This document shows, piece after piece, positions 28,092 through 35,979 of a DNA stretch of 64,000 nucleotides. The translations under genes were made by a program, and so were the position numbers. Source of the stretch: Clostridia bacterium (GTDB lineage Bacteria > Bacillota > Clostridia > RUG12999); the NCBI GenBank assembly GCA_022801925.1, contig JAAWTG010000004.1, positions 19,590 through 83,589 of the forward strand, in the 5' to 3' direction. The notes below the pieces were generated by a model. The model saw only the letters and a program-made list of their open reading frames with translations. It was not told where the DNA came from and did no database searches. Numbering within the stretch: position 1 is the stretch's first letter; each line of letters opens with the position of its first letter.

Positions 28092-29243
28092 TTATTCTCC
28101 TTTGAAAGTGGAAGAAACGCCTGTATAATTGCCCAGCAAAAAGAAATCCTGCGTTTGCGTTTGCAGTAGGGAAATGGTCTGTGCAATACGGGACTCGGAA
28201 AGATGTCCTTCAAAATCTGCATAGAATAAATATTTCCATTTGCTGGCAGGATAGGGGCGTGACTCCAATTTTATGAGATTCAAATTATGTTTTGCAAAGA
28301 CGCTTAAAGTATGATATAAACTGCCGCTTTCGTTGTTCAAAGAAAATGCAATGCTGACCTTGGACGCGCCGGGACAAATCAAAAGGTCTTTTGACACAAT
28401 CGCAAAGCGCGTATAATTATTGGGATTATCCTCAATTTCAGATTGTAAAATTTCAAGACCATAGAACGCCGCGCTGCTGGCGCTGCCGATGACGCCGCGC
28501 GTTTTATCGCCGGAGGCCGCCACCATTTTTGCGCTGGCGGCAGTGTTATAATAGGGCGTCAGCTTCACATCTAACGAGGATAAAAAGTTTTCACACTGCA
28601 TGAACGGTTGGGGATGGGAGTAGATTTCCTTTAAATTCGCGGTTTTAGCGCCCGGCAGTCCCATTAAATTATGACTGATACGCAAATTGGTCTCACCCAC
28701 GATATGGTAACCGTATTCACAAAACAATTCGTAAGAGTCAAAAATAGAACCGGTGGATGAATTTTCAATGGGGACGATACCATAGTCCGCTTTACCTTGT
28801 TTCAAAGTTTCAAAAACATCGCGGAAGGTAGCGGCGGGAAGTGTAGAGATGCCATCGAAACAGGACTTCATGGCTTCCCAGGTATAGGAACCTTCCGCGC
28901 CGTAGAATACCACTTGTTTTGCACTCGGCAGTACCGGCGGATACGCCGCGTCCGGCTGCATAGGTGAGTCGGCCGTGACAATATTCAGTTGATACATTTT
29001 GCTTAGGTTCATCAACGTGCGGAACATTTCCACTGTTTCAAAACGGTAGTTTTCGTTCGCGCCCGCTGCGACATTTTGCAGAATTTCCGCTTCACGCGTT
29101 TCGTCCAGTATCGGCAGCTCGTGTGCCGCCTTATAACGCGCAATATCGGCAGAAACCTCCATTCGCTGACTGAACAAGTCCAGCATTTGCTGGTTGATTC
29201 TGTTGATTTGTTCCCGTAACTCTTTCAACTCCATAGTTTGCAT
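28092..29243 (-). CDS. pheA: Chorismate mutase / prephenate dehydratase
   Basis: N-terminal AroQ domain (LREQINRIN..RE), PIENS..G, SHPQ, TRF, ACT domain with KLESRP. Confidence 0.93.
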   Translation of the reverse strand: MQTMELKELREQINRINQQMLDLFSQRMEVSADIARYKAAHELPILDETREAEILQNVAAGANENYRFETVEMFRTLMNLSKMYQLNIVTADSPMQPDAAYPPVLPSAKQVVFYGAEGSYTWEAMKSCFDGISTLPAATFRDVFETLKQGKADYGIVPIENSSTGSIFDSYELFCEYGYHIVGETNLRISHNLMGLPGAKTANLKEIYSHPQPFMQCENFLSSLDVKLTPYYNTAASAKMVAASGDKTRGVIGSASSAAFYGLEILQSEIEDNPNNYTRFAIVSKDLLICPGASKVSIAFSLNNESGSLYHTLSVFAKHNLNLIKLESRPYPASKWKYLFYADFEGHLSESRIAQTISLLQTQTQDFFLLGNYTGVSSTFKGE

Positions 29244-29252
29244 ATCTCCTAT

Positions 29253-30344
29253 CTATATTGACTCAGGATATTCGTCCAGCCATAAATCCATCAGGGAAAT
29301 TGCCAGCGCTGATTCGACAACGACAACAGCGCGCGGAACAATACATGGGTCGTGCCGCCCTTTGCCTGCCAAAACACCCTCCTGCATGGTGTGAATATCG
29401 AATGTCCGTTGTTCCTTGCCAATGGTTGGCGTGGGTTTAAAAGCGGTGTGCACCACAATCGGCATACCGTTTGTGATACCGCCCAGAATGCCGCCGCAGT
29501 GATTGGTGTGCGTTTTCACGCCGCCGTCCAGATAATAGGTGTCGTTGTTTTCTTCTCCGGTCATGCATGTGCAGTCAAATCCGCTGCCGAAAGAAACGCC
29601 TTTGACTGCCGGAACGGCATAAAGAAATGAAGAAACCACGCTTTCTGCATTGCGGAACATGGGGGAACCCAGACCGGCAGGAACGCCTACCGCAATGCAT
29701 TCCACTGTTCCGCCGACTGAATTGAGATTTTGTTTTGCGTCCAGAATAGCAGTTTTCATTTTTTTGCCTTGAGTATCGCTTAAAGCAGCGAACTCTTTTT
29801 GCCGCAAAACAGCCAAAGCGGCCAGGTCAGGCTGTACCCAGTCGGTTGGCGCGTCATTGATTCCTGCAATGGCGGAAATATGCGCATAGACTTCAATGCC
29901 TTTTTGCCGCAGAAACTGGCGGCAGATGCTTCCTGCCGCCACCATAGGCGCAGTGAGCCGACCGGAAAAGTGACCGCCGCCGCGGATGTCGTTATGCCCG
30001 TTATATTTCACCTGCGCCGGATAATCACTGTGTCCAGGGCGCATAAGCGATGCCATTTCATTGTAGTGATGCGACTTGGTATCAGTGTTTTTGAAACAGA
30101 TACAAAGCGGCGCGCCGGTGGTGATATCGTTTAAAATGCCGCTCTTGAAAATGGGTTCGTCTGCCTCTTTGCGCGGTGTGGACAGAGCAGATTGTCCAGG
30201 TGCGCGGCGGGACAAGTGATGACGGATTTCCGCCATATCAAGTTTCAATCCTGCCGGAAGTCCGCTGATAATTACGCCGATTTCAGGACCATGGGATTCA
30301 CCGAAGATAGATAACTGAATGTTTTTTCCCCAGGTAGAACTCAT
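29253..30344 (-). CDS. aroC: Chorismate synthase
   Basis: FGESHG, RPGHSD, GGGHFSGR, FKPTP, GRHDPCIVPRA; ATGA overlap with the aroA stop. Confidence 0.96.
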   Translation of the reverse strand: MSSTWGKNIQLSIFGESHGPEIGVIISGLPAGLKLDMAEIRHHLSRRAPGQSALSTPRKEADEPIFKSGILNDITTGAPLCICFKNTDTKSHHYNEMASLMRPGHSDYPAQVKYNGHNDIRGGGHFSGRLTAPMVAAGSICRQFLRQKGIEVYAHISAIAGINDAPTDWVQPDLAALAVLRQKEFAALSDTQGKKMKTAILDAKQNLNSVGGTVECIAVGVPAGLGSPMFRNAESVVSSFLYAVPAVKGVSFGSGFDCTCMTGEENNDTYYLDGGVKTHTNHCGGILGGITNGMPIVVHTAFKPTPTIGKEQRTFDIHTMQEGVLAGKGRHDPCIVPRAVVVVESALAISLMDLWLDEYPESI

Positions 30345-31588
30345 TGTTTCTTCAACCTTTCTAATTCCTGCCAAAAGGCGGGATAGGATTTTTGTACGGC
30401 GTCCGCGCCGTCAATGACAATGGGTGCGGTGCTTTTTTGCGCTGCGATAGCAAGCGCCATGGCAATACGGTGGTCGTTATGGGAGGAAACCTGTCCGCCG
30501 TGCAGTGTGTCCACATGACGAATGACAAGACCGTCCTCCAGTTCCGTGATGTCTGCGCCCAGCCGGTTTAATTCGCCGGCAGTTGCTGAGAGCCGGTCGC
30601 TTTCTTTCAGCCGCAGCCGCGCTGCGCCGGTGAGATGCATTTCAGAGCAGCAAAAACTGCCCAAAACGGCAAGAATGGGCACCAAATCGGGAATATCAGA
30701 GACGTCAATGCATAATTTTTCCGTACCGATTTTTCTGGTAGGGCGTACCAAATACTGTTCTGACACAGAAAAGCCGCATTGTTTCAAAATGGCGATAATT
30801 TGACTGTCACCCTGCGCTGTTGTGGGGGAGAGATTGGAGACGGAAATTTCGCCCCCCAAGGCGTTTGCCACCAGCCAAAAAGCAGCATTAGACCAGTCGC
30901 CTTCACACATAAATTTGCCGGGCGAATGATAGGTTCCGCTGACAGAAAAAGTGCGGTAATTTTCGTGCGAACAGGTGATACCAAACTGTTTCATAATGTC
31001 TAGAGTAATATCCACATAGGGACGGGATTCCAAAGGCGTAGTCACTTCCAAAACGGAATCGCCGAGCAGCGGCAAAGCAAGCAGCAGTCCGGTGATAAAT
31101 TGGGAACTGACGTTACCACGAATGCGAAGCGTTCCGGACGCCAGTTTGTCTTGCAGCGTAACCGGAAGATTGCCCTGCGCCATATAAGAAAAGCCGTTTT
31201 GGTCAAATAGTTCAAATAAAGGTGTAAGAGGGCGCTGCGGCAGCCGCCCTTCGCCTGTGAAGGTCACATGTGCACCAAGCGCTGCGGCAACGGGCAGGAA
31301 AAAACGAATGGTGGAGCCGGATTCGCGGCAGTTTACCGCCGCCTGTTCCGGCAAGGAGTGCCGCCCTGTAACCGTGATAGAATCACCGATATGAATGTTG
31401 GAAAGCAGCGTTTGGCAAGCGGAAAGCGTTGCCTGAATGTCCTCGGAGAGCAGCAGGGGAGACAGTTCTGTCACGCCACCCGCCAAAGATGCACAAATCA
31501 GCGCGCGGTGCATGACGCTTTTGGAGGGCAGCATAGAAACTTCTCCGCGCAGCGATGCAGCGCTGACTGTCGTTGAAGTTGCCATCAC
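30341..31588 (-). CDS. aroA: EPSP synthase
   Basis: PSKS..HR, ESGSTIRF, SSQFITG, RLKESDR, DHRIAM, KSYPAF. Confidence 0.96.
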   Translation of the reverse strand: MMATSTTVSAASLRGEVSMLPSKSVMHRALICASLAGGVTELSPLLLSEDIQATLSACQTLLSNIHIGDSITVTGRHSLPEQAAVNCRESGSTIRFFLPVAAALGAHVTFTGEGRLPQRPLTPLFELFDQNGFSYMAQGNLPVTLQDKLASGTLRIRGNVSSQFITGLLLALPLLGDSVLEVTTPLESRPYVDITLDIMKQFGITCSHENYRTFSVSGTYHSPGKFMCEGDWSNAAFWLVANALGGEISVSNLSPTTAQGDSQIIAILKQCGFSVSEQYLVRPTRKIGTEKLCIDVSDIPDLVPILAVLGSFCCSEMHLTGAARLRLKESDRLSATAGELNRLGADITELEDGLVIRHVDTLHGGQVSSHNDHRIAMALAIAAQKSTAPIVIDGADAVQKSYPAFWQELERLKKQ

Positions 31589-32646
31589 ATACCCGCCTTT
31601 CCCAGCGCTGCACAGATGTCGGAAACAAAGTCCGTTGTCGGGACAATGACCCCGTTGCCGATTTCATCTAACATGACAACATGCAGCGTTTTGCCGATGT
31701 TCTTTTTGTCGTTTTGTATCAGCGGTAGCAGTTCCAGCAAATCCGCTTGCGCAATTTGATGAGGAAGATGATAGGCTTCCACCGCGTCCAGCACTTTTTG
31801 CGCCGTTCCCGCTTTTGACGGTCCTATCTGTTCGCTGAACTGTGTCATGAGCACCATACCTAACGCTACCGCTTCGCCATGTGTGAACTTGGTGAATTGA
31901 TAATATTTTTCAATGGCATGTCCAATGGTATGCCCGAAATTCAGCAGCATACGCAGACCGGTGTCGTTCGCGTCCACTGCCACGACGTCGCGTTTGATGG
32001 AAACGCATTCATAAATCAAATCTTCGCGGCTGATAGAGTGGTTTAAAATGGCGTCAAACAACGCTTTGTTGCGGATACAGCCATATTTAATCGCCTCCGC
32101 CATGCCGTCATAATAAAACCGCTGCGGCAGCGTGTCCAGACAGGTGGGGTCAATCAAAACCAGCTTGGGGTGATAGAAAGCGCCGACCATGTTTTTGCCA
32201 AACGGCATATCGATTGCCACTTTGCCGCCGACAGAGGAATCAATCTGCGCCAAAAGGGAAGTCGGCACCTGCACCAGTCCGATGCCGCGCAGGTAAGAGG
32301 CTGCGGCAAAGCCGGCAAGGTCGCCGGTAACGCCGCCGCCAAGCGCGATGATGAAATCGCCGCGGTTAATATGCTGCTCCGCCAGAAATGCATATATTTT
32401 TTGCAGCGTATCATTGCATTTGCTCTGTTCACCGTGAGGAAAGACATATTTACATGTTTCCACACCGGCGCGCTGCAAAGACTGCATCACGGTTTCGCCA
32501 TAAAATTTGTCCACATTGTCGTCGGTGATGACGGCAGCTTTGCCGTGATAAATGGTACGGACAAATTCACCCAGCCGCGCTAAACAGCCATCCTCAATAT
32601 GAATGGGGTATGAAATGGAATCAAAAGCCACTGTTAATGTTTTCAT
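31585..32646 (-). CDS. aroB: 3-dehydroquinate synthase
   Basis: GGGVTGDLAGF, PTSLLAQIDSSVGGK, LNFGHTIGHAIE, HGEAVA. Confidence 0.96.
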   Translation of the reverse strand: MKTLTVAFDSISYPIHIEDGCLARLGEFVRTIYHGKAAVITDDNVDKFYGETVMQSLQRAGVETCKYVFPHGEQSKCNDTLQKIYAFLAEQHINRGDFIIALGGGVTGDLAGFAAASYLRGIGLVQVPTSLLAQIDSSVGGKVAIDMPFGKNMVGAFYHPKLVLIDPTCLDTLPQRFYYDGMAEAIKYGCIRNKALFDAILNHSISREDLIYECVSIKRDVVAVDANDTGLRMLLNFGHTIGHAIEKYYQFTKFTHGEAVALGMVLMTQFSEQIGPSKAGTAQKVLDAVEAYHLPHQIAQADLLELLPLIQNDKKNIGKTLHVVMLDEIGNGVIVPTTDFVSDICAALGKAGM

Positions 32647-32672: not shown

Positions 32673-33692
32673 TTATATCGTACGGTCTTCCACTGCCGCG
32701 ACTTTGCGCAGACGTTCCATGGTACCTGCAAATTCGGCAGGAGTAATGGACTGTGCGCCGTCTGACAACGCTTTTTTCGGATTGTTATGCACTTCAATCA
32801 TCAGACCATCTGCACCAGCCACAATTGCTGATTTTGCCAGCGGTTCCACCATCCAGTTAATGCCTGCCGCATGGCTGGGGTCAATGACAATGGGAAGGTG
32901 GGACAATTTTTTCAGTGCCGGAACTGCACTGATGTCAAGCGTGTTGCGCGTATATGGCTCAAAAGTACGGATACCGCGTTCGCACAGAATAACCTGTTCA
33001 TTGCCGCCCGCCATGATATATTCCGCGCTCATGAGCAGTTCCTCCAGTGTGTTTGCAAGTCCGCGTTTGAGCAAAATAGGACGGTTGATTCTGCCGAGTT
33101 CCTTCAGCAATTCAAAGTTTTGCATGTTGCGCGCACCCACTTGAATCACGTCCACATCAAATTTCTCGAAAATTTCAATATGAGCAATATCCATCAATTC
33201 TGTCACAATGGGCAGTCCTGTTTCTTTTTTTGCAATGTCCAGAAGTTTCAGTCCGTCGTTGTGCAGCCCCTGGAAAGAGTAGGGGGAAGTGCGTGGTTTG
33301 AATGCGCCGCCGCGTAAAAACGTTGCGCCTGCTTTTTTGATGTCCTGCGCGATTCCTACAATCTGTTCCTCGGATTCCACGGAACAGGGTCCTGCCATGA
33401 CTACTAATTTCTGTTTGTCGCCGATTTTGATACCTTTCACATCATAGACGGAATTTTCAGGATGAAATTTCCGGTTTGCTTTTTTGAACGGTTCTTGTAC
33501 GCGCGTCACTTTTTCCACTGCGTCATTGGCATTCAGCGCGTCAATATCGACCGCGGAAGTATCGCCGACCAAGCCCAATATACGGGCGCCCACGCCGGAA
33601 ATACCCTGCACATCCAAACCTAAATCCTGCACATCAGCGATAAGCTTTTGTACCGCTTCCTCCGTTGCTCCTTGATTGATTACAATAATCAT
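32673..33692 (-). CDS. aroF: DAHP synthase type I-beta with N-terminal regulatory domain
   Basis: AGPCSVES, RGGAFKPRTSPYSFQG, GARNMQNF, DPSHA. Confidence 0.96.
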   Translation of the reverse strand: MIIVINQGATEEAVQKLIADVQDLGLDVQGISGVGARILGLVGDTSAVDIDALNANDAVEKVTRVQEPFKKANRKFHPENSVYDVKGIKIGDKQKLVVMAGPCSVESEEQIVGIAQDIKKAGATFLRGGAFKPRTSPYSFQGLHNDGLKLLDIAKKETGLPIVTELMDIAHIEIFEKFDVDVIQVGARNMQNFELLKELGRINRPILLKRGLANTLEELLMSAEYIMAGGNEQVILCERGIRTFEPYTRNTLDISAVPALKKLSHLPIVIDPSHAAGINWMVEPLAKSAIVAGADGLMIEVHNNPKKALSDGAQSITPAEFAGTMERLRKVAAVEDRTI

Positions 33693-33733
33693 AATCCTTC
33701 ACTCCTTCATATCCTACAAAATTTTTTTATATC

Positions 33734-33766
33734 AAAAAAAGCGGCTCGTGATACCACGAACCGCTT
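33734..33766 (-). terminator. Attenuator terminator in the aro operon leader
   Basis: Minus strand AAGCGGTTCGTG-GTAT-CACGAGCCGC followed by T7, about 40 nt before the aroF start. Confidence 0.88.
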
Positions 33767-33798
33767 GATTTGCAACTATACCGAACTCACAGGGCAAA

Positions 33799-33927
33799 TT
33801 AGCCCAGAGCCGGACGCTTCAAACGCATGGTATCACTTTTTTTGCAGCAAAAATAGCCAGTGCTAAAGTAATAATAGCCTGGAAAGTAAAAGAAAAATTC
33901 TTTTGCTGTCATGCTGCGAGACGCCAT
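33799..33927 (-). CDS. Phe/Tyr-rich leader peptide (42 aa) of the aro operon
   Basis: Hand translation MASRSMTAKEFFFYFPGYYYFSTGYFCCKKSDTMRLKRPALG*; AAGGAG RBS 8 nt upstream; 6 Phe and 5 Tyr within 16 codons. Confidence 0.85.
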   Translation of the reverse strand: MASRSMTAKEFFFYFPGYYYFSTGYFCCKKSDTMRLKRPALG

Positions 33928-33960
33928 GGTAAAAACTCCTTATCAATAATGATTGTTACT

Positions 33961-33990
33961 ATTTTATCATAGGACGGGTTTTTATGTCAA
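33961..33990 (-). promoter_or_regulatory. Sigma-A promoter of the leader/aro operon
   Basis: Minus strand TTGACA-18 nt-TAAAAT with TG extension. Confidence 0.72.
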
Positions 33991-34194
33991 GGGAAATCTG
34001 CACAAAATTTGAAATGCCGGAAGGAAAATTTTTATATGTGCTGGTGTTGATTTAACATGGGAACCTATGTTACATGCTCAAAAATATGCATTCTATCCAA
34101 ATACTGAAGGGGGAAAATATGGAATATTACTATTGCATAAAAAAAACTACGGATTTATAATAGAAATGTAAGAAACTATAATAGGAGGTCATGT

Positions 34195-35979
34195 ATGATG
34201 ATAGATGAATTGATTGGAAGATTGCCCAAAGTGGGAATCCGTCCTGCGATTGACGGACGCCGAATGGGCGTGCGGGAGTCGCTGGAAGAAAAAACAATGG
34301 AAATGGCGAAGGCAGCGGCAAAATTGATTGCAGACAATTTGAAATATCCAAACGGTAAGCCGGTGGAAGTTGTTATTTCTGATTGCACCATTGCGTGTGC
34401 GGCGGAATCTGCAAAATGCCAGGAGAAATTTGACAGAGAAGGCGTGAAAGTGTCTCTGACGGTTACGCCGTGCTGGTGCTACGGAACAGAGACCATGGAT
34501 CTTACGCCCAACACCCCCAAAGCAGTTTGGGGATTTAATGGAACAGAACGTCCCGGAGCAGTATATCTGGCGGCGGCGTTGGCAGCGTATAGTCAGAAAG
34601 GACTACCGGCGTTTGGTATCTATGGAAAAGACGTGCAAGATGTAGATGATAACAGTATTCCGGAAGATGTGCAGGAAAAAATCCTGCGCTTTGCCAAAGC
34701 AGGTATTGCGGTGGCATTGATGGAAGGAAAATCCTATCTGTCTTTTGGTAACGTTGCAATGGGTATCGGCGGTTCTGTTGTGGACAACAATTTCTTCTAT
34801 GACTATCTGGGTATCCGCAATGAATATGTAGATATGGTGGAATTCATGCGCCGCATGGATTTGGGTATCTATGATAAAGAAGAATTTGAAAAAGCGCTTG
34901 CTTGGGCAAAAGAAAACTGCAAAGAAGGATTTGACAAAAATCCGCAGCCGCACAGCCGTGAGCAGAAAGACCAGGAATGGGAAACCGTTGTAAAAATGAC
35001 AATGATTATGCGCGACATGATGATTGGCAATCCCAAACTGGCGGAAATGGGATATGTGGAAGAAAGCAACGGCAGAAATGCAATCGCTGCCGGATTCCAG
35101 GGACAGCGTCAATGGACGGACTATATGCCCAACGGCGATTTCTCGGAAGCAATTTTGAACTCTTCTTTTGACTGGACAGGAAAACGCGAACCCATGACAG
35201 TTGCGACAGAAAACGACAGCCTTAACGGCGTGGCAATGCTGTTTGGAAAATTGTTGACAAACACGGCGCAGGTGTTCTGCGATGTGCGTACATATTGGAG
35301 TCCCGACGCGATTGAACGCGTTTCCGGAAAACTGCCGGAATCCGCGAAAGATGGCGTGATTCATTTGATTAACTCCGGTGCGGCGGCGCTGGACGGTTCG
35401 GGACAGGCGGAAATTGACGGAAAACCGGCAATCAAACCGTTCTGGGAACTGGACGACAAAGAAGTGGATAAATGCCTCAAAGCAACAGATTGGTGTCCGG
35501 CTGATTTGTGCTATTTCCGCGGCGGCGGATTCTCTTCGCATTTCTTCACACGCGGCGGTATGCCGATGACAATGATTCGTTTGAACCTGGTGAAAGGATT
35601 GGGACCGGTGCTGCAAATTGCAGAAGGCTACAGTGTAGATTTGCCGCAAGATGTGTGCGAAATATTGGATAAGAGAACAGACCCGACATGGCCGACCACT
35701 TGGTTTGTACCGCGTCTGAACGGAAAGAATGCGTTTACCGATACTTACCATGTGATGGCAAACTGGGGCGCAAACCATTGTGCACTGTCCTATGGACATA
35801 TTGGTGCAGACCTCATTACCATGGCATCCATGCTGCGTATTCCGGTTAGTATGCACAACGTGGAAGAAACGGATATTTTCCGTCCGAGTGCATGGAGCGC
35901 ATTTGGCACCAAAGATTTGGAAGGCGCTGATTACCGCGCTTGCATGAACTTTGGTCCGGTTTATAATAAATATAAATAA
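34195..35979 (+). CDS. fucI: L-fucose isomerase
   Basis: [53 protein letters not shown]; AGGAGG RBS. Confidence 0.96.

Follow-up and report, generated by a model that had tools for sequence, protein, structure and literature searches.

A probable leader-peptide attenuator with Phe and Tyr codons upstream of the aroF operon in Clostridia

The minus strand of a 64,000-nucleotide (nt) stretch of DNA from a Clostridia bacterium (GenBank assembly GCA_022801925.1, contig JAAWTG010000004.1, positions 19,590 to 83,589; the whole stretch is referred to here as the window) carries, directly upstream of the DAHP (3-deoxy-7-phosphoheptulonate) synthase gene aroF, a 42-codon open reading frame (ORF) crowded with phenylalanine (Phe) and tyrosine (Tyr) codons and followed by an intrinsic terminator. 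Judging from the sequence and from its counterparts in other genomes, we consider it very probable that this region is a leader-peptide transcription attenuator of the genes aroF-aroB-aroA-aroC-pheA, which would sense charged tRNA-Phe and tRNA-Tyr at the first committed step of aromatic amino acid synthesis, a major control point. A preliminary description of the window, made without database searches, had proposed such a dual attenuator. Its positions and counts all hold, from the promoter, the AAGGAG motif and the 42-codon ORF to the 6 Phe and 5 Tyr codons in a run of 16 with no tryptophan (Trp), the terminator and aroF (Table 1), and its interpretation gains support from a conserved Phe/Tyr-rich ORF in related leaders, from the absence of a T-box and from antiterminator arms that are matched to the terminators of their own clades.

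The elements expected of an attenuator are found in the expected order. A short ORF with its own ribosome-binding site lies between the promoter and the first structural gene, and the intrinsic terminator sits between this ORF and aroF. In a consensus scan the promoter matches 11 of 12 consensus positions, with a TG preceding the -10 box; it is kept in the three relatives from the same genus whose contigs extend that far and probably functions as the promoter of the leader transcript. The terminator has 7 G-C pairs among its 12, a loop of 4 nt and a folding energy of -19.7 kcal/mol. Thirteen nt past the last Phe codon, the segment GUGAUACCAUG (33836-33826) can pair with CGUGGUAUCAC (33758-33748) over 11 base pairs (bp), one of them G-U, as the preliminary description had noted; we find that this helix continues for 6 further pairs past a 3-nt bulge, giving a 17-bp duplex between segments 2 and 3 (33836-33820 with 33767-33748) with an energy of -22.2 kcal/mol. 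CGUGGUAUCAC spans the last 4 nt of the terminator 5' arm, the loop and the first 3 nt of the 3' arm, and segment 3 as a whole takes in all but one base of the terminator 5' arm, the loop and 3 bases of the 3' arm. By their overlapping coordinates the antiterminator and the terminator are therefore mutually exclusive, just as had been proposed, and a ribosome stalled on the regulatory codons would leave the 5' arm of the antiterminator free. The 283-nt leader folds more stably than 200 of 200 of its own shuffles (z = -3.64).

Table 1. Positions in the window of the elements of the proposed aroF attenuator and of the genes downstream
Feature	Position	Strand	Remarks
Putative sigma-A-type promoter	33961..33990	-	-35 TTGACA 33990-33985, 18-nt spacer, TG-extended -10 TAAAAT 33966-33961
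Shine-Dalgarno sequence of the leader ORF	33936..33941	-	AAGGAG, 8 nt 5' of ATG; read from the sequence
Leader ORF	33799..33927	-	42 codons and stop; MASRSMTAKEFFFYFPGYYYFSTGYFCCKKSDTMRLKRPALG
Regulatory codon run	33850..33897	-	codons 11-26; 6 Phe and 5 Tyr in 16 codons, no Trp
Hairpin within the codon run	33857..33882	-	CCAGGC-[UAUUAUUACUUUA]-GCaCUGG, -9.1 kcal/mol; U-rich tract 3'
Antiterminator 5' arm (segment 2)	33820..33836	-	GUGAUACCAUGCGUUUG; within the ORF at codons 31-36
Small hairpin at the stop codon	33783..33811	-	-12.0 kcal/mol; UAA stop codon (33801-33799) in the loop
Antiterminator 3' arm (segment 3)	33748..33767	-	CAAGCG-guu-CGUGGUAUCAC
Intrinsic terminator	33732..33766	-	12-bp stem 33766-33739, U-run to ~33734
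aroF, DAHP synthase with N-terminal ferredoxin-like domain	32673..33692	-	predicted first gene controlled; start 33692
aroB, 3-dehydroquinate synthase	31585-32646	-	Pfam DHQ_synthase
aroA, EPSP synthase	30341-31588	-	Pfam EPSP_synthase
aroC, chorismate synthase	29253-30374	-	Pfam Chorismate_synt
pheA, chorismate mutase/prephenate dehydratase	28092-29243	-	Pfam CM_2 and PDT

The leader is retained throughout the genus. A blastn search finds it in the other four species of the genus, with identities of 97, 95, 85 and 80%, and in no other place; beyond the genus such searches returned nothing meaningful, and the wider homologues described below came only through aroF combined with an ORF scan. 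In the alignment of the five species the ORF is open throughout, with a GTG start in one case, and the Shine-Dalgarno sequence, the codon run and both helices are kept. Changes within the 16-codon run are confined to F11Y, Y14W (a change of two bases) and two synonymous substitutions, while the remainder of the ORF has accumulated 7 and at least 9 replacements in the two more distant species (G004 and G002). All 12 terminator pairs are preserved, two of them alternating between U-G and U-A. The antiterminator is invariant except for 2 bases in G002 (97.6% of alignment cells paired, against 25-45% in slid registers). All cells of the codon-run hairpin pair, with one change from A-U to G-U, and the GGGC/GCCC core of the hairpin around the stop codon is 79% paired, with one pair changed on both sides in a compensatory manner. 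A role in releasing the ribosome, or in drawing segments 2 and 3 close to each other, is possible for this last hairpin.

In order to place the leader among catalogued regulatory elements we compared it with the Rfam, Pfam and NCBIfam collections, the T-box and leader-peptide models of Rfam having been named as a check in the preliminary description. Across the window no Rfam family scores as high as its gathering threshold, and at E-values up to 10 the region 33400-34300 yields five weak, unrelated matches, with neither a T-box nor any leader-peptide model (Phe_leader included) among them. The T-box model (RF00230) does work in this genome, where it finds 8 T-boxes elsewhere; the six of these that were checked precede trpE, pheS, leuA, ilvA, a PaaK-like ligase and aspS. 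With T-boxes at trpE and pheS and none here, the Trp branch and the Phe-tRNA ligase are thus placed under T-box control and the common pathway under a different device. Eleven leader-bearing loci from the wider set were likewise scanned and match no Rfam family. The leader peptide has no Pfam or NCBIfam match at E-values up to 10, and in a set of 5.8 billion proteins it finds one near-identical cluster only. Current annotations therefore miss the element, which has no entry in any of these three collections and whose ORF almost always escapes gene callers.

A scan of the whole source genome for short ORFs rich in a particular amino acid and followed by a terminator returned the aroF leader as the sole aromatic one. 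Three further candidates, rich in Asn, Gln and Ser, were dropped, as they are without a Shine-Dalgarno sequence and resemble ordinary gene ends. Among the T-boxes, the one in front of the PaaK-like phenylacetate-CoA ligase gene (L144) scores 105 bits (L034; G000:C33:9703-9972, plus strand) and has an unusual target for this class; it may link aromatic acid catabolism to tRNA charging.

To assess how widely the arrangement occurs, we used AroF to collect a first set of 93 aroF upstream regions, 13 from the family of the window and 80 from named public contigs, which include Clostridium sensu stricto, a Clostridioides difficile contig, Acetobacterium and metagenome-assembled genomes labelled Lachnospiraceae, Oscillospiraceae, Acutalibacteraceae or Ruminococcus. 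From the family were left out two near-identical copies from the genus (L040, L041), one match beginning at residue 32 (L050), one locus with 132 nt of upstream DNA (L053) and the C-terminal fragments L055 and L057-L059; L119, with no upstream DNA, and L063, with 118 nt, were kept among the 93 as leaderless. A leader was called where an ORF contained at least 6 (strictly, at least 7) Phe, Tyr or Trp codons in 12, cut-offs that we chose ourselves. By this rule 62 of the 93 regions have such an ORF at the cut-off of 6, and in 60 of these 62 a terminator-like hairpin with a U-run follows before aroF. Nearly all of the 60 leader ORFs (59) have an in-frame start with a Shine-Dalgarno match of at least 4 nt located 3-12 nt upstream, the start codon is ATG in 58, and the peptides are 18 to 55 residues long (median 40). 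The Phe/Tyr-rich ORF is accordingly kept not only within the genus but far beyond it, which answers the check for orthologous leaders suggested in the preliminary description.

As a collection assembled through AroF is biased towards look-alikes, we also sampled the class evenly, scoring 150 genomes with a completeness of 90% or more; aroF is present in 112 of them, and 139 upstream regions were obtained from 102 of these 112. This sample comprises the aroF matches listed, with 10 further matches outside it; 5 genomes of the window's family, 1 place with less than 200 nt of upstream DNA and 5 partial matches were left out. Fifty-nine of the 139 regions, in 57 of the 102 genomes, pass the cut-off of at least 6 aromatic codons together with a terminator, and 53 regions in 51 genomes and 26 of 44 families do so at 7. 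Several regions scoring 5, such as L085, L090 and L137, look like genuine Tyr-rich leaders, so that all these counts are probably floors. We attach no P-values to the tallies because related genomes are not independent.

Among the 80 leaderless regions of the class sample, 16 contain the T-box-like motif GGTRCCRCG, and 11 of these score above the Rfam T-box threshold. Two loci of the named set, L062 and L133, also have a T-box before aroF; in the combined list the arrangement is seen at L062, L133, L149, L151, L152, L248, L254, L260, L262, L263, L265, L269 and L277. One and the same gene, aroF, is thus found under two different RNA devices, T-box and leader peptide, within one class. At a further locus of the window's own family (L044, genome G007) aroF is preceded by a promoter-like site and a short untranslated leader; an aromatic ORF, a terminator and an Rfam match are all lacking, and the attenuator has there been lost or was never gained.

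The codon cluster itself is beyond what base composition would produce. In 9,300 dinucleotide-preserving shuffles of the 93 upstream regions, a 12-codon window with at least 8 aromatic codons appears in 0.19% and one with 9, the value of the leader described here, in 0.01%. These figures bear on the simplest alternative, a 5' terminator that is constitutive or otherwise controlled, for example by a protein antiterminator, and that happens to stand beside a chance ORF. Such an explanation would accord with equilibrium folds that favour the terminator in all states modelled (see below). It would have to accommodate, on the other hand, at least 8 aromatic codons in 45 of the 93 real regions as opposed to 0.19% of the shuffled ones, conservation in 26 of 44 families, and a 17-bp helix overlapping the terminator that is hard to explain without a switch. 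We regard it as extremely improbable.

Comparison across clades shows that the 5' arm of the antiterminator differs from clade to clade yet complements the terminator of its own clade. In Clostridium and C. difficile types, UAAUGAGU (codons Leu-Met-Ser) pairs with ACUCAUUA in the terminator 5' arm and loop, with 93.4% of cells paired as compared to 30-61% when slid, and variants such as CAAGUGAGU with ACUCCUUG preserve the helix through a shifted register. The arm seen in the family's sister genera is AAUUUGUGYUGC (codons Asn-Leu-Cys-Cys), and its partner, such as GCUGCACAGAUU, lies in the arm and loop of the terminator. A second aroF copy in one genome of that group (L056 of G021; the contig stops inside aroF) is preceded by the Tyr-only leader MRNLAAAAAYTYYYYYCKKQ and has the conserved UUGUGUUGC arm 3' of the stop codon; the arm is therefore conserved as RNA and not as a Cys-Cys peptide. 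To assess the match between arms more quantitatively, we ranked each of 119 leaders against all 119 terminators. The cognate terminator 5' arm is among the best 10% for 42 leaders (24 in a reversed-arm control) and among the best 25% for 70 (42 in the control), with a median rank of 0.18 as compared to 0.40, and the test is conservative because relatives share terminators. In the Clostridium group, 6 terminator pairs show changes on both sides. Covariation in both helices, another check put forward in the preliminary description, is thus borne out in part: the terminator has pair-preserving changes and the antiterminator arms are matched by clade, while within the genus the antiterminator does not vary.

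The codon content of the leaders follows the content of the operons behind them. Two genomes of one family (G148 and G060) each have two aroF paralogues, and each copy has its own leader (upstream regions L183, L168, L170 and L195). In both genomes a Tyr-rich leader (…AEYYYYLYS… and …AGAYYYYLYS…) precedes an aroF that is directly adjoined by a prephenate dehydrogenase gene (L286, L287), and a Phe-rich leader precedes an aroF without an aromatic gene after it (L285, L288). Across the named loci, aroB is the next gene after Phe-rich leaders in 16 of 26 cases and tyrA after mixed or Tyr-rich leaders in 20 of 38; as these loci are related, the association is a trend and not a test. The leader in the window is mixed, with 6 Phe and 5 Tyr codons, and its operon ends in pheA.

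A further conserved feature is a hairpin inside the codon run, the loop of which is made of three or four aromatic codons (four in the window). Its form CUGGgGC-[UUUUAUUUUA]-GCgCUGG, with a U-rich tract 3', stands unchanged in 19 of 19 Clostridium/C. difficile-type leaders (alignment A2, columns 39-65). Matches to a strict pattern are present in 24 of the 60 leader regions of the first set and in 8 of the 59 of the class sample, in six families including that of the window, and in 0 of 80 non-leader regions; the variants CUGG/CUAG, CUGG/CCGG, CCAG/CUGG and CCGG/CUGG all retain pairing. The hairpin accounts for the conserved Trp-Gly … Ser-Ala-Gly of the peptides (Pro-Gly … Ser-Thr-Gly in the window) and for the invariant GGC, AGC and GCU codons. 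We read it as a candidate RNA polymerase pause site that would let the ribosome catch up, comparable as a pause element to the 1:2 hairpin of the E. coli trp leader. We would go further only with considerable reserve: that entry into the shikimate pathway is governed across Clostridia mainly by this uncatalogued leader, with the hairpin as a built-in pause holding the polymerase until the ribosome arrives, is possible though rather doubtful. If true, such a pause would render attenuation by ribosomes feasible in a phylum whose polymerases reportedly run ahead of the translating ribosome.

Conservation of this kind also invites two other explanations. In the first of these, a structured RNA senses a ligand, a protein or a tRNA directly, and the ORF is a by-product of a conserved U/A-rich sequence. 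The nucleotide conservation that extends to synonymous positions, the invariance of the hairpin in all 19 Clostridium-type leaders, which explains the seemingly conserved W-G...S-A-G residues, and the UUGUGUUGC arm that lies behind the stop codon in L056 and so acts as RNA are all compatible with it. Against it stand a Shine-Dalgarno-preceded in-frame start in 59 of 60 leaders and a run that varies widely in sequence by clade, yet stays aromatic in one frame, which continues until a stop codon close to the antiterminator arm. The Tyr-rich or Phe-rich content moreover tracks the genes of the operon, no Rfam family (T-box included) matches, and the strict hairpin, found in just 24 of 60 and 8 of 59 leaders, is not a common sensor. 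Taken together this makes a direct RNA sensor quite improbable.

The second explanation assigns the activity to the peptide, either as a nascent arrest peptide sensing free Phe or Tyr in the ribosome tunnel, in the way that TnaC senses Trp there, or as a small hydrophobic protein. The motif [FY]FS[AT]GYF[FC]CKK does recur in distant Clostridia, but it is explained by the RNA hairpin and the antiterminator arm. Lengths of 18 to 55 residues, sequences unrelated between clades outside the aromatic run, an order that is always promoter, ORF, terminator, aroF, and the absence of a protein family match speak against a functional peptide as well, and we judge it highly improbable.

In the attenuator that we favour, transcription would start near 33954 and the leader ORF would be translated as RNA polymerase proceeds. 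When Phe-tRNA or Tyr-tRNA is scarce, the ribosome would stall within codons 11-26, leaving segment 2 downstream free, and following ribosomes would hold the start region occupied; segment 2 could then capture segment 3 before the terminator 3' arm is made, and the polymerase would read into aroF. When both amino acids are plentiful, the ribosome would pass over segment 2 to the stop codon, the terminator would form and transcription would end. Without translation, segment 2 would be expected to pair with the Shine-Dalgarno/start region, so that the terminator would form in this state too. The minimum-energy fold computed without a ribosome corresponds to this last state, both in the pairing of segment 2 and in the presence of the terminator.

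Several observations weigh against this mechanism. In equilibrium folds with a ribosome footprint placed on codons 11-26, the terminator forms together with the pairing of segment 2 and the start region, and the antiterminator never appears. The terminator is in fact kept in the minimum-energy fold at every modelled ribosome position, so equilibrium folding cannot tell the states apart, and the model therefore depends on co-transcriptional kinetics. The position of the stop codon raises a second difficulty, as in the window's genus there are 24 nt between the end of the segment 2 core and the stop, and 18 nt between the end of its extension and the stop. A terminating ribosome would therefore not mask the arm, unlike in the textbook trp model, in which the ribosome at the stop codon covers the antiterminator 5' arm, and segment 2 would be masked only during ribosome passage. 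In Clostridium-type leaders the stop lies mostly 0-5 nt after the arm and in the sister genera 5-20 nt. The replete state is thus the weak point for the window's genus, where termination would have to depend on timing, on trailing ribosomes or on segment 2 re-pairing with the start region. The codon run is in large part conserved at synonymous positions too (GGC, AGC, GCU), which implies constraint at the RNA level and leaves room for an RNA-based component. The invariance of the antiterminator within the genus means that there is no covariation at that level, which is uninformative either way. In Bacillus subtilis, transcription reportedly outruns translation, which would make ribosome-dependent attenuation harder in this phylum. 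Finally, contigs of 151-355 nt from four metatranscriptome runs cover the aroF coding region, with one reaching 33727 and none extending over 33732-33954; such contigs cannot show transcript ends or levels.

The identity of aroF is supported by matches to Pfam DAHP_synth_1 (4.2e-80) and DAHP_snth_FXD and to NCBIfam NF006421 (2.9e-145). Because the gene ends are close or overlapping, aroF-aroB-aroA-aroC-pheA would seem to form a single operon. Upstream, a gene for L-fucose isomerase (34195-35979, plus strand) diverges from the aro promoter across a common intergenic region of about 200 nt, within which a second promoter-like site lies on the plus strand at 34154-34182.

If the assignment is correct, about half of the sampled Clostridia appear to control entry into aromatic synthesis by a translated leader in place of T-box or protein control. 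Gut or rumen Clostridia account for many of the named carriers, and C. difficile and butyrate producers are also represented. The leaders would provide a natural and widespread test case for the question of whether transcription and translation are coupled tightly enough in Clostridia for ribosome-mediated attenuation, and deletion of the leader is an obvious handle for metabolic engineers seeking to raise aromatic flux in clostridial hosts.

For one of these organisms there is a published observation to which the leader can be related. Premature transcription termination has been reported in the aroF 5' untranslated region of C. difficile 630, where the report gives no known riboregulator (Fuchs et al., bioRxiv 10.1101/2020.08.10.244764). 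We find the leader at the C. difficile locus of our set (L103), and its presence on that contig would explain the termination described there. A full-text search, with subscription papers and supplements outside its scope, turned up no paper that describes a leader peptide with aromatic codons upstream of aroF for Clostridia, and the family has no record in Rfam, Pfam or NCBIfam.

Among known systems, a similar construction is seen in the proteobacterial attenuators trpL, pheL (upstream of pheA), hisL, leuL and thrL, represented in Rfam by Phe_leader, Trp_leader and other models, which have in common with the clostridial leader a short ORF preceded by a Shine-Dalgarno sequence, a cluster of end-product codons, a terminator, an exclusive antiterminator and the location of the antiterminator 5' arm just past the regulatory codons. 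The clostridial leader differs from them in showing no sequence or covariance-model similarity (no Rfam leader model at E-values up to 10), in its clostridial Bacillota host, in two amino acids being read together, in a stop codon 24 nt past the antiterminator arm and in the conserved hairpin inside the codon run. The paralogue leaders of G148 and G060 resemble the isoenzyme-specific control of aroF and aroG in E. coli, here by way of leader peptides. T-box leaders, which sense uncharged tRNA directly and without translation, do the same job in the same class, standing before aroF in other Clostridia (11 regions of the class sample, L062 and L133).

Two previously described elements are associated with the same gene. 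In Corynebacterium glutamicum, a putative leader peptide with Phe-Tyr-Phe is located upstream of aroF (Mentz et al., 2013, PMC4046766). The idea of reading Phe and Tyr at the pathway entry is the same, but the host belongs to the Actinobacteria and the leader, compared here by description only, has just three aromatic codons as described; an independent origin of the two seems likely. The motif uORFC-13-1, with 24 representatives from Acholeplasma and environmental sequences, has been seen in front of aroF and of no other gene (Brewer et al., 2021, RNA Biol, PMC8632094). Its description gives promoter-like boxes, a ribosome-binding site, a start codon, Phe-coding U-runs with 'at least one' Phe, an adjacent intrinsic terminator and 'another base-paired substructure', and proposes attenuation dependent on ribosome speed. 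Clostridia are not mentioned in the passages describing the motif, and the clostridial leaders can be set beside it by that text description only.

Leader peptides have also been described for other pathways in the same phylum, among them His leader peptides in bacilli, in a study that also notes 'regular' leader peptides among the Firmicutes (Naville and Gautheret, 2010, PMC2965389), His leaders in Peptostreptococcaceae, Erysipelotrichales and the B. cereus group (Ashniev et al., 2022, PMC9413887) and a Leu-rich attenuator peptide in S. aureus (PMC5794164). The background assumed in the preliminary description, that Bacillota usually regulate aromatic genes by T-boxes or TRAP and that leader-peptide attenuators are best known from Proteobacteria, is dated, as leader peptides are not confined to Proteobacteria. 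As described, these His and Leu leaders are of the same mechanism class and serve other amino acids and operons with a patchy distribution, unlike the clostridial aroF leader, which is present in about half of the sampled Clostridia. The mechanism class is thus a textbook one and not new to Gram-positive bacteria; what is new is an uncatalogued clostridial family of members, whose interest lies not in its principle but in how widely it occurs among Clostridia and in the hairpin that its codon run contains.

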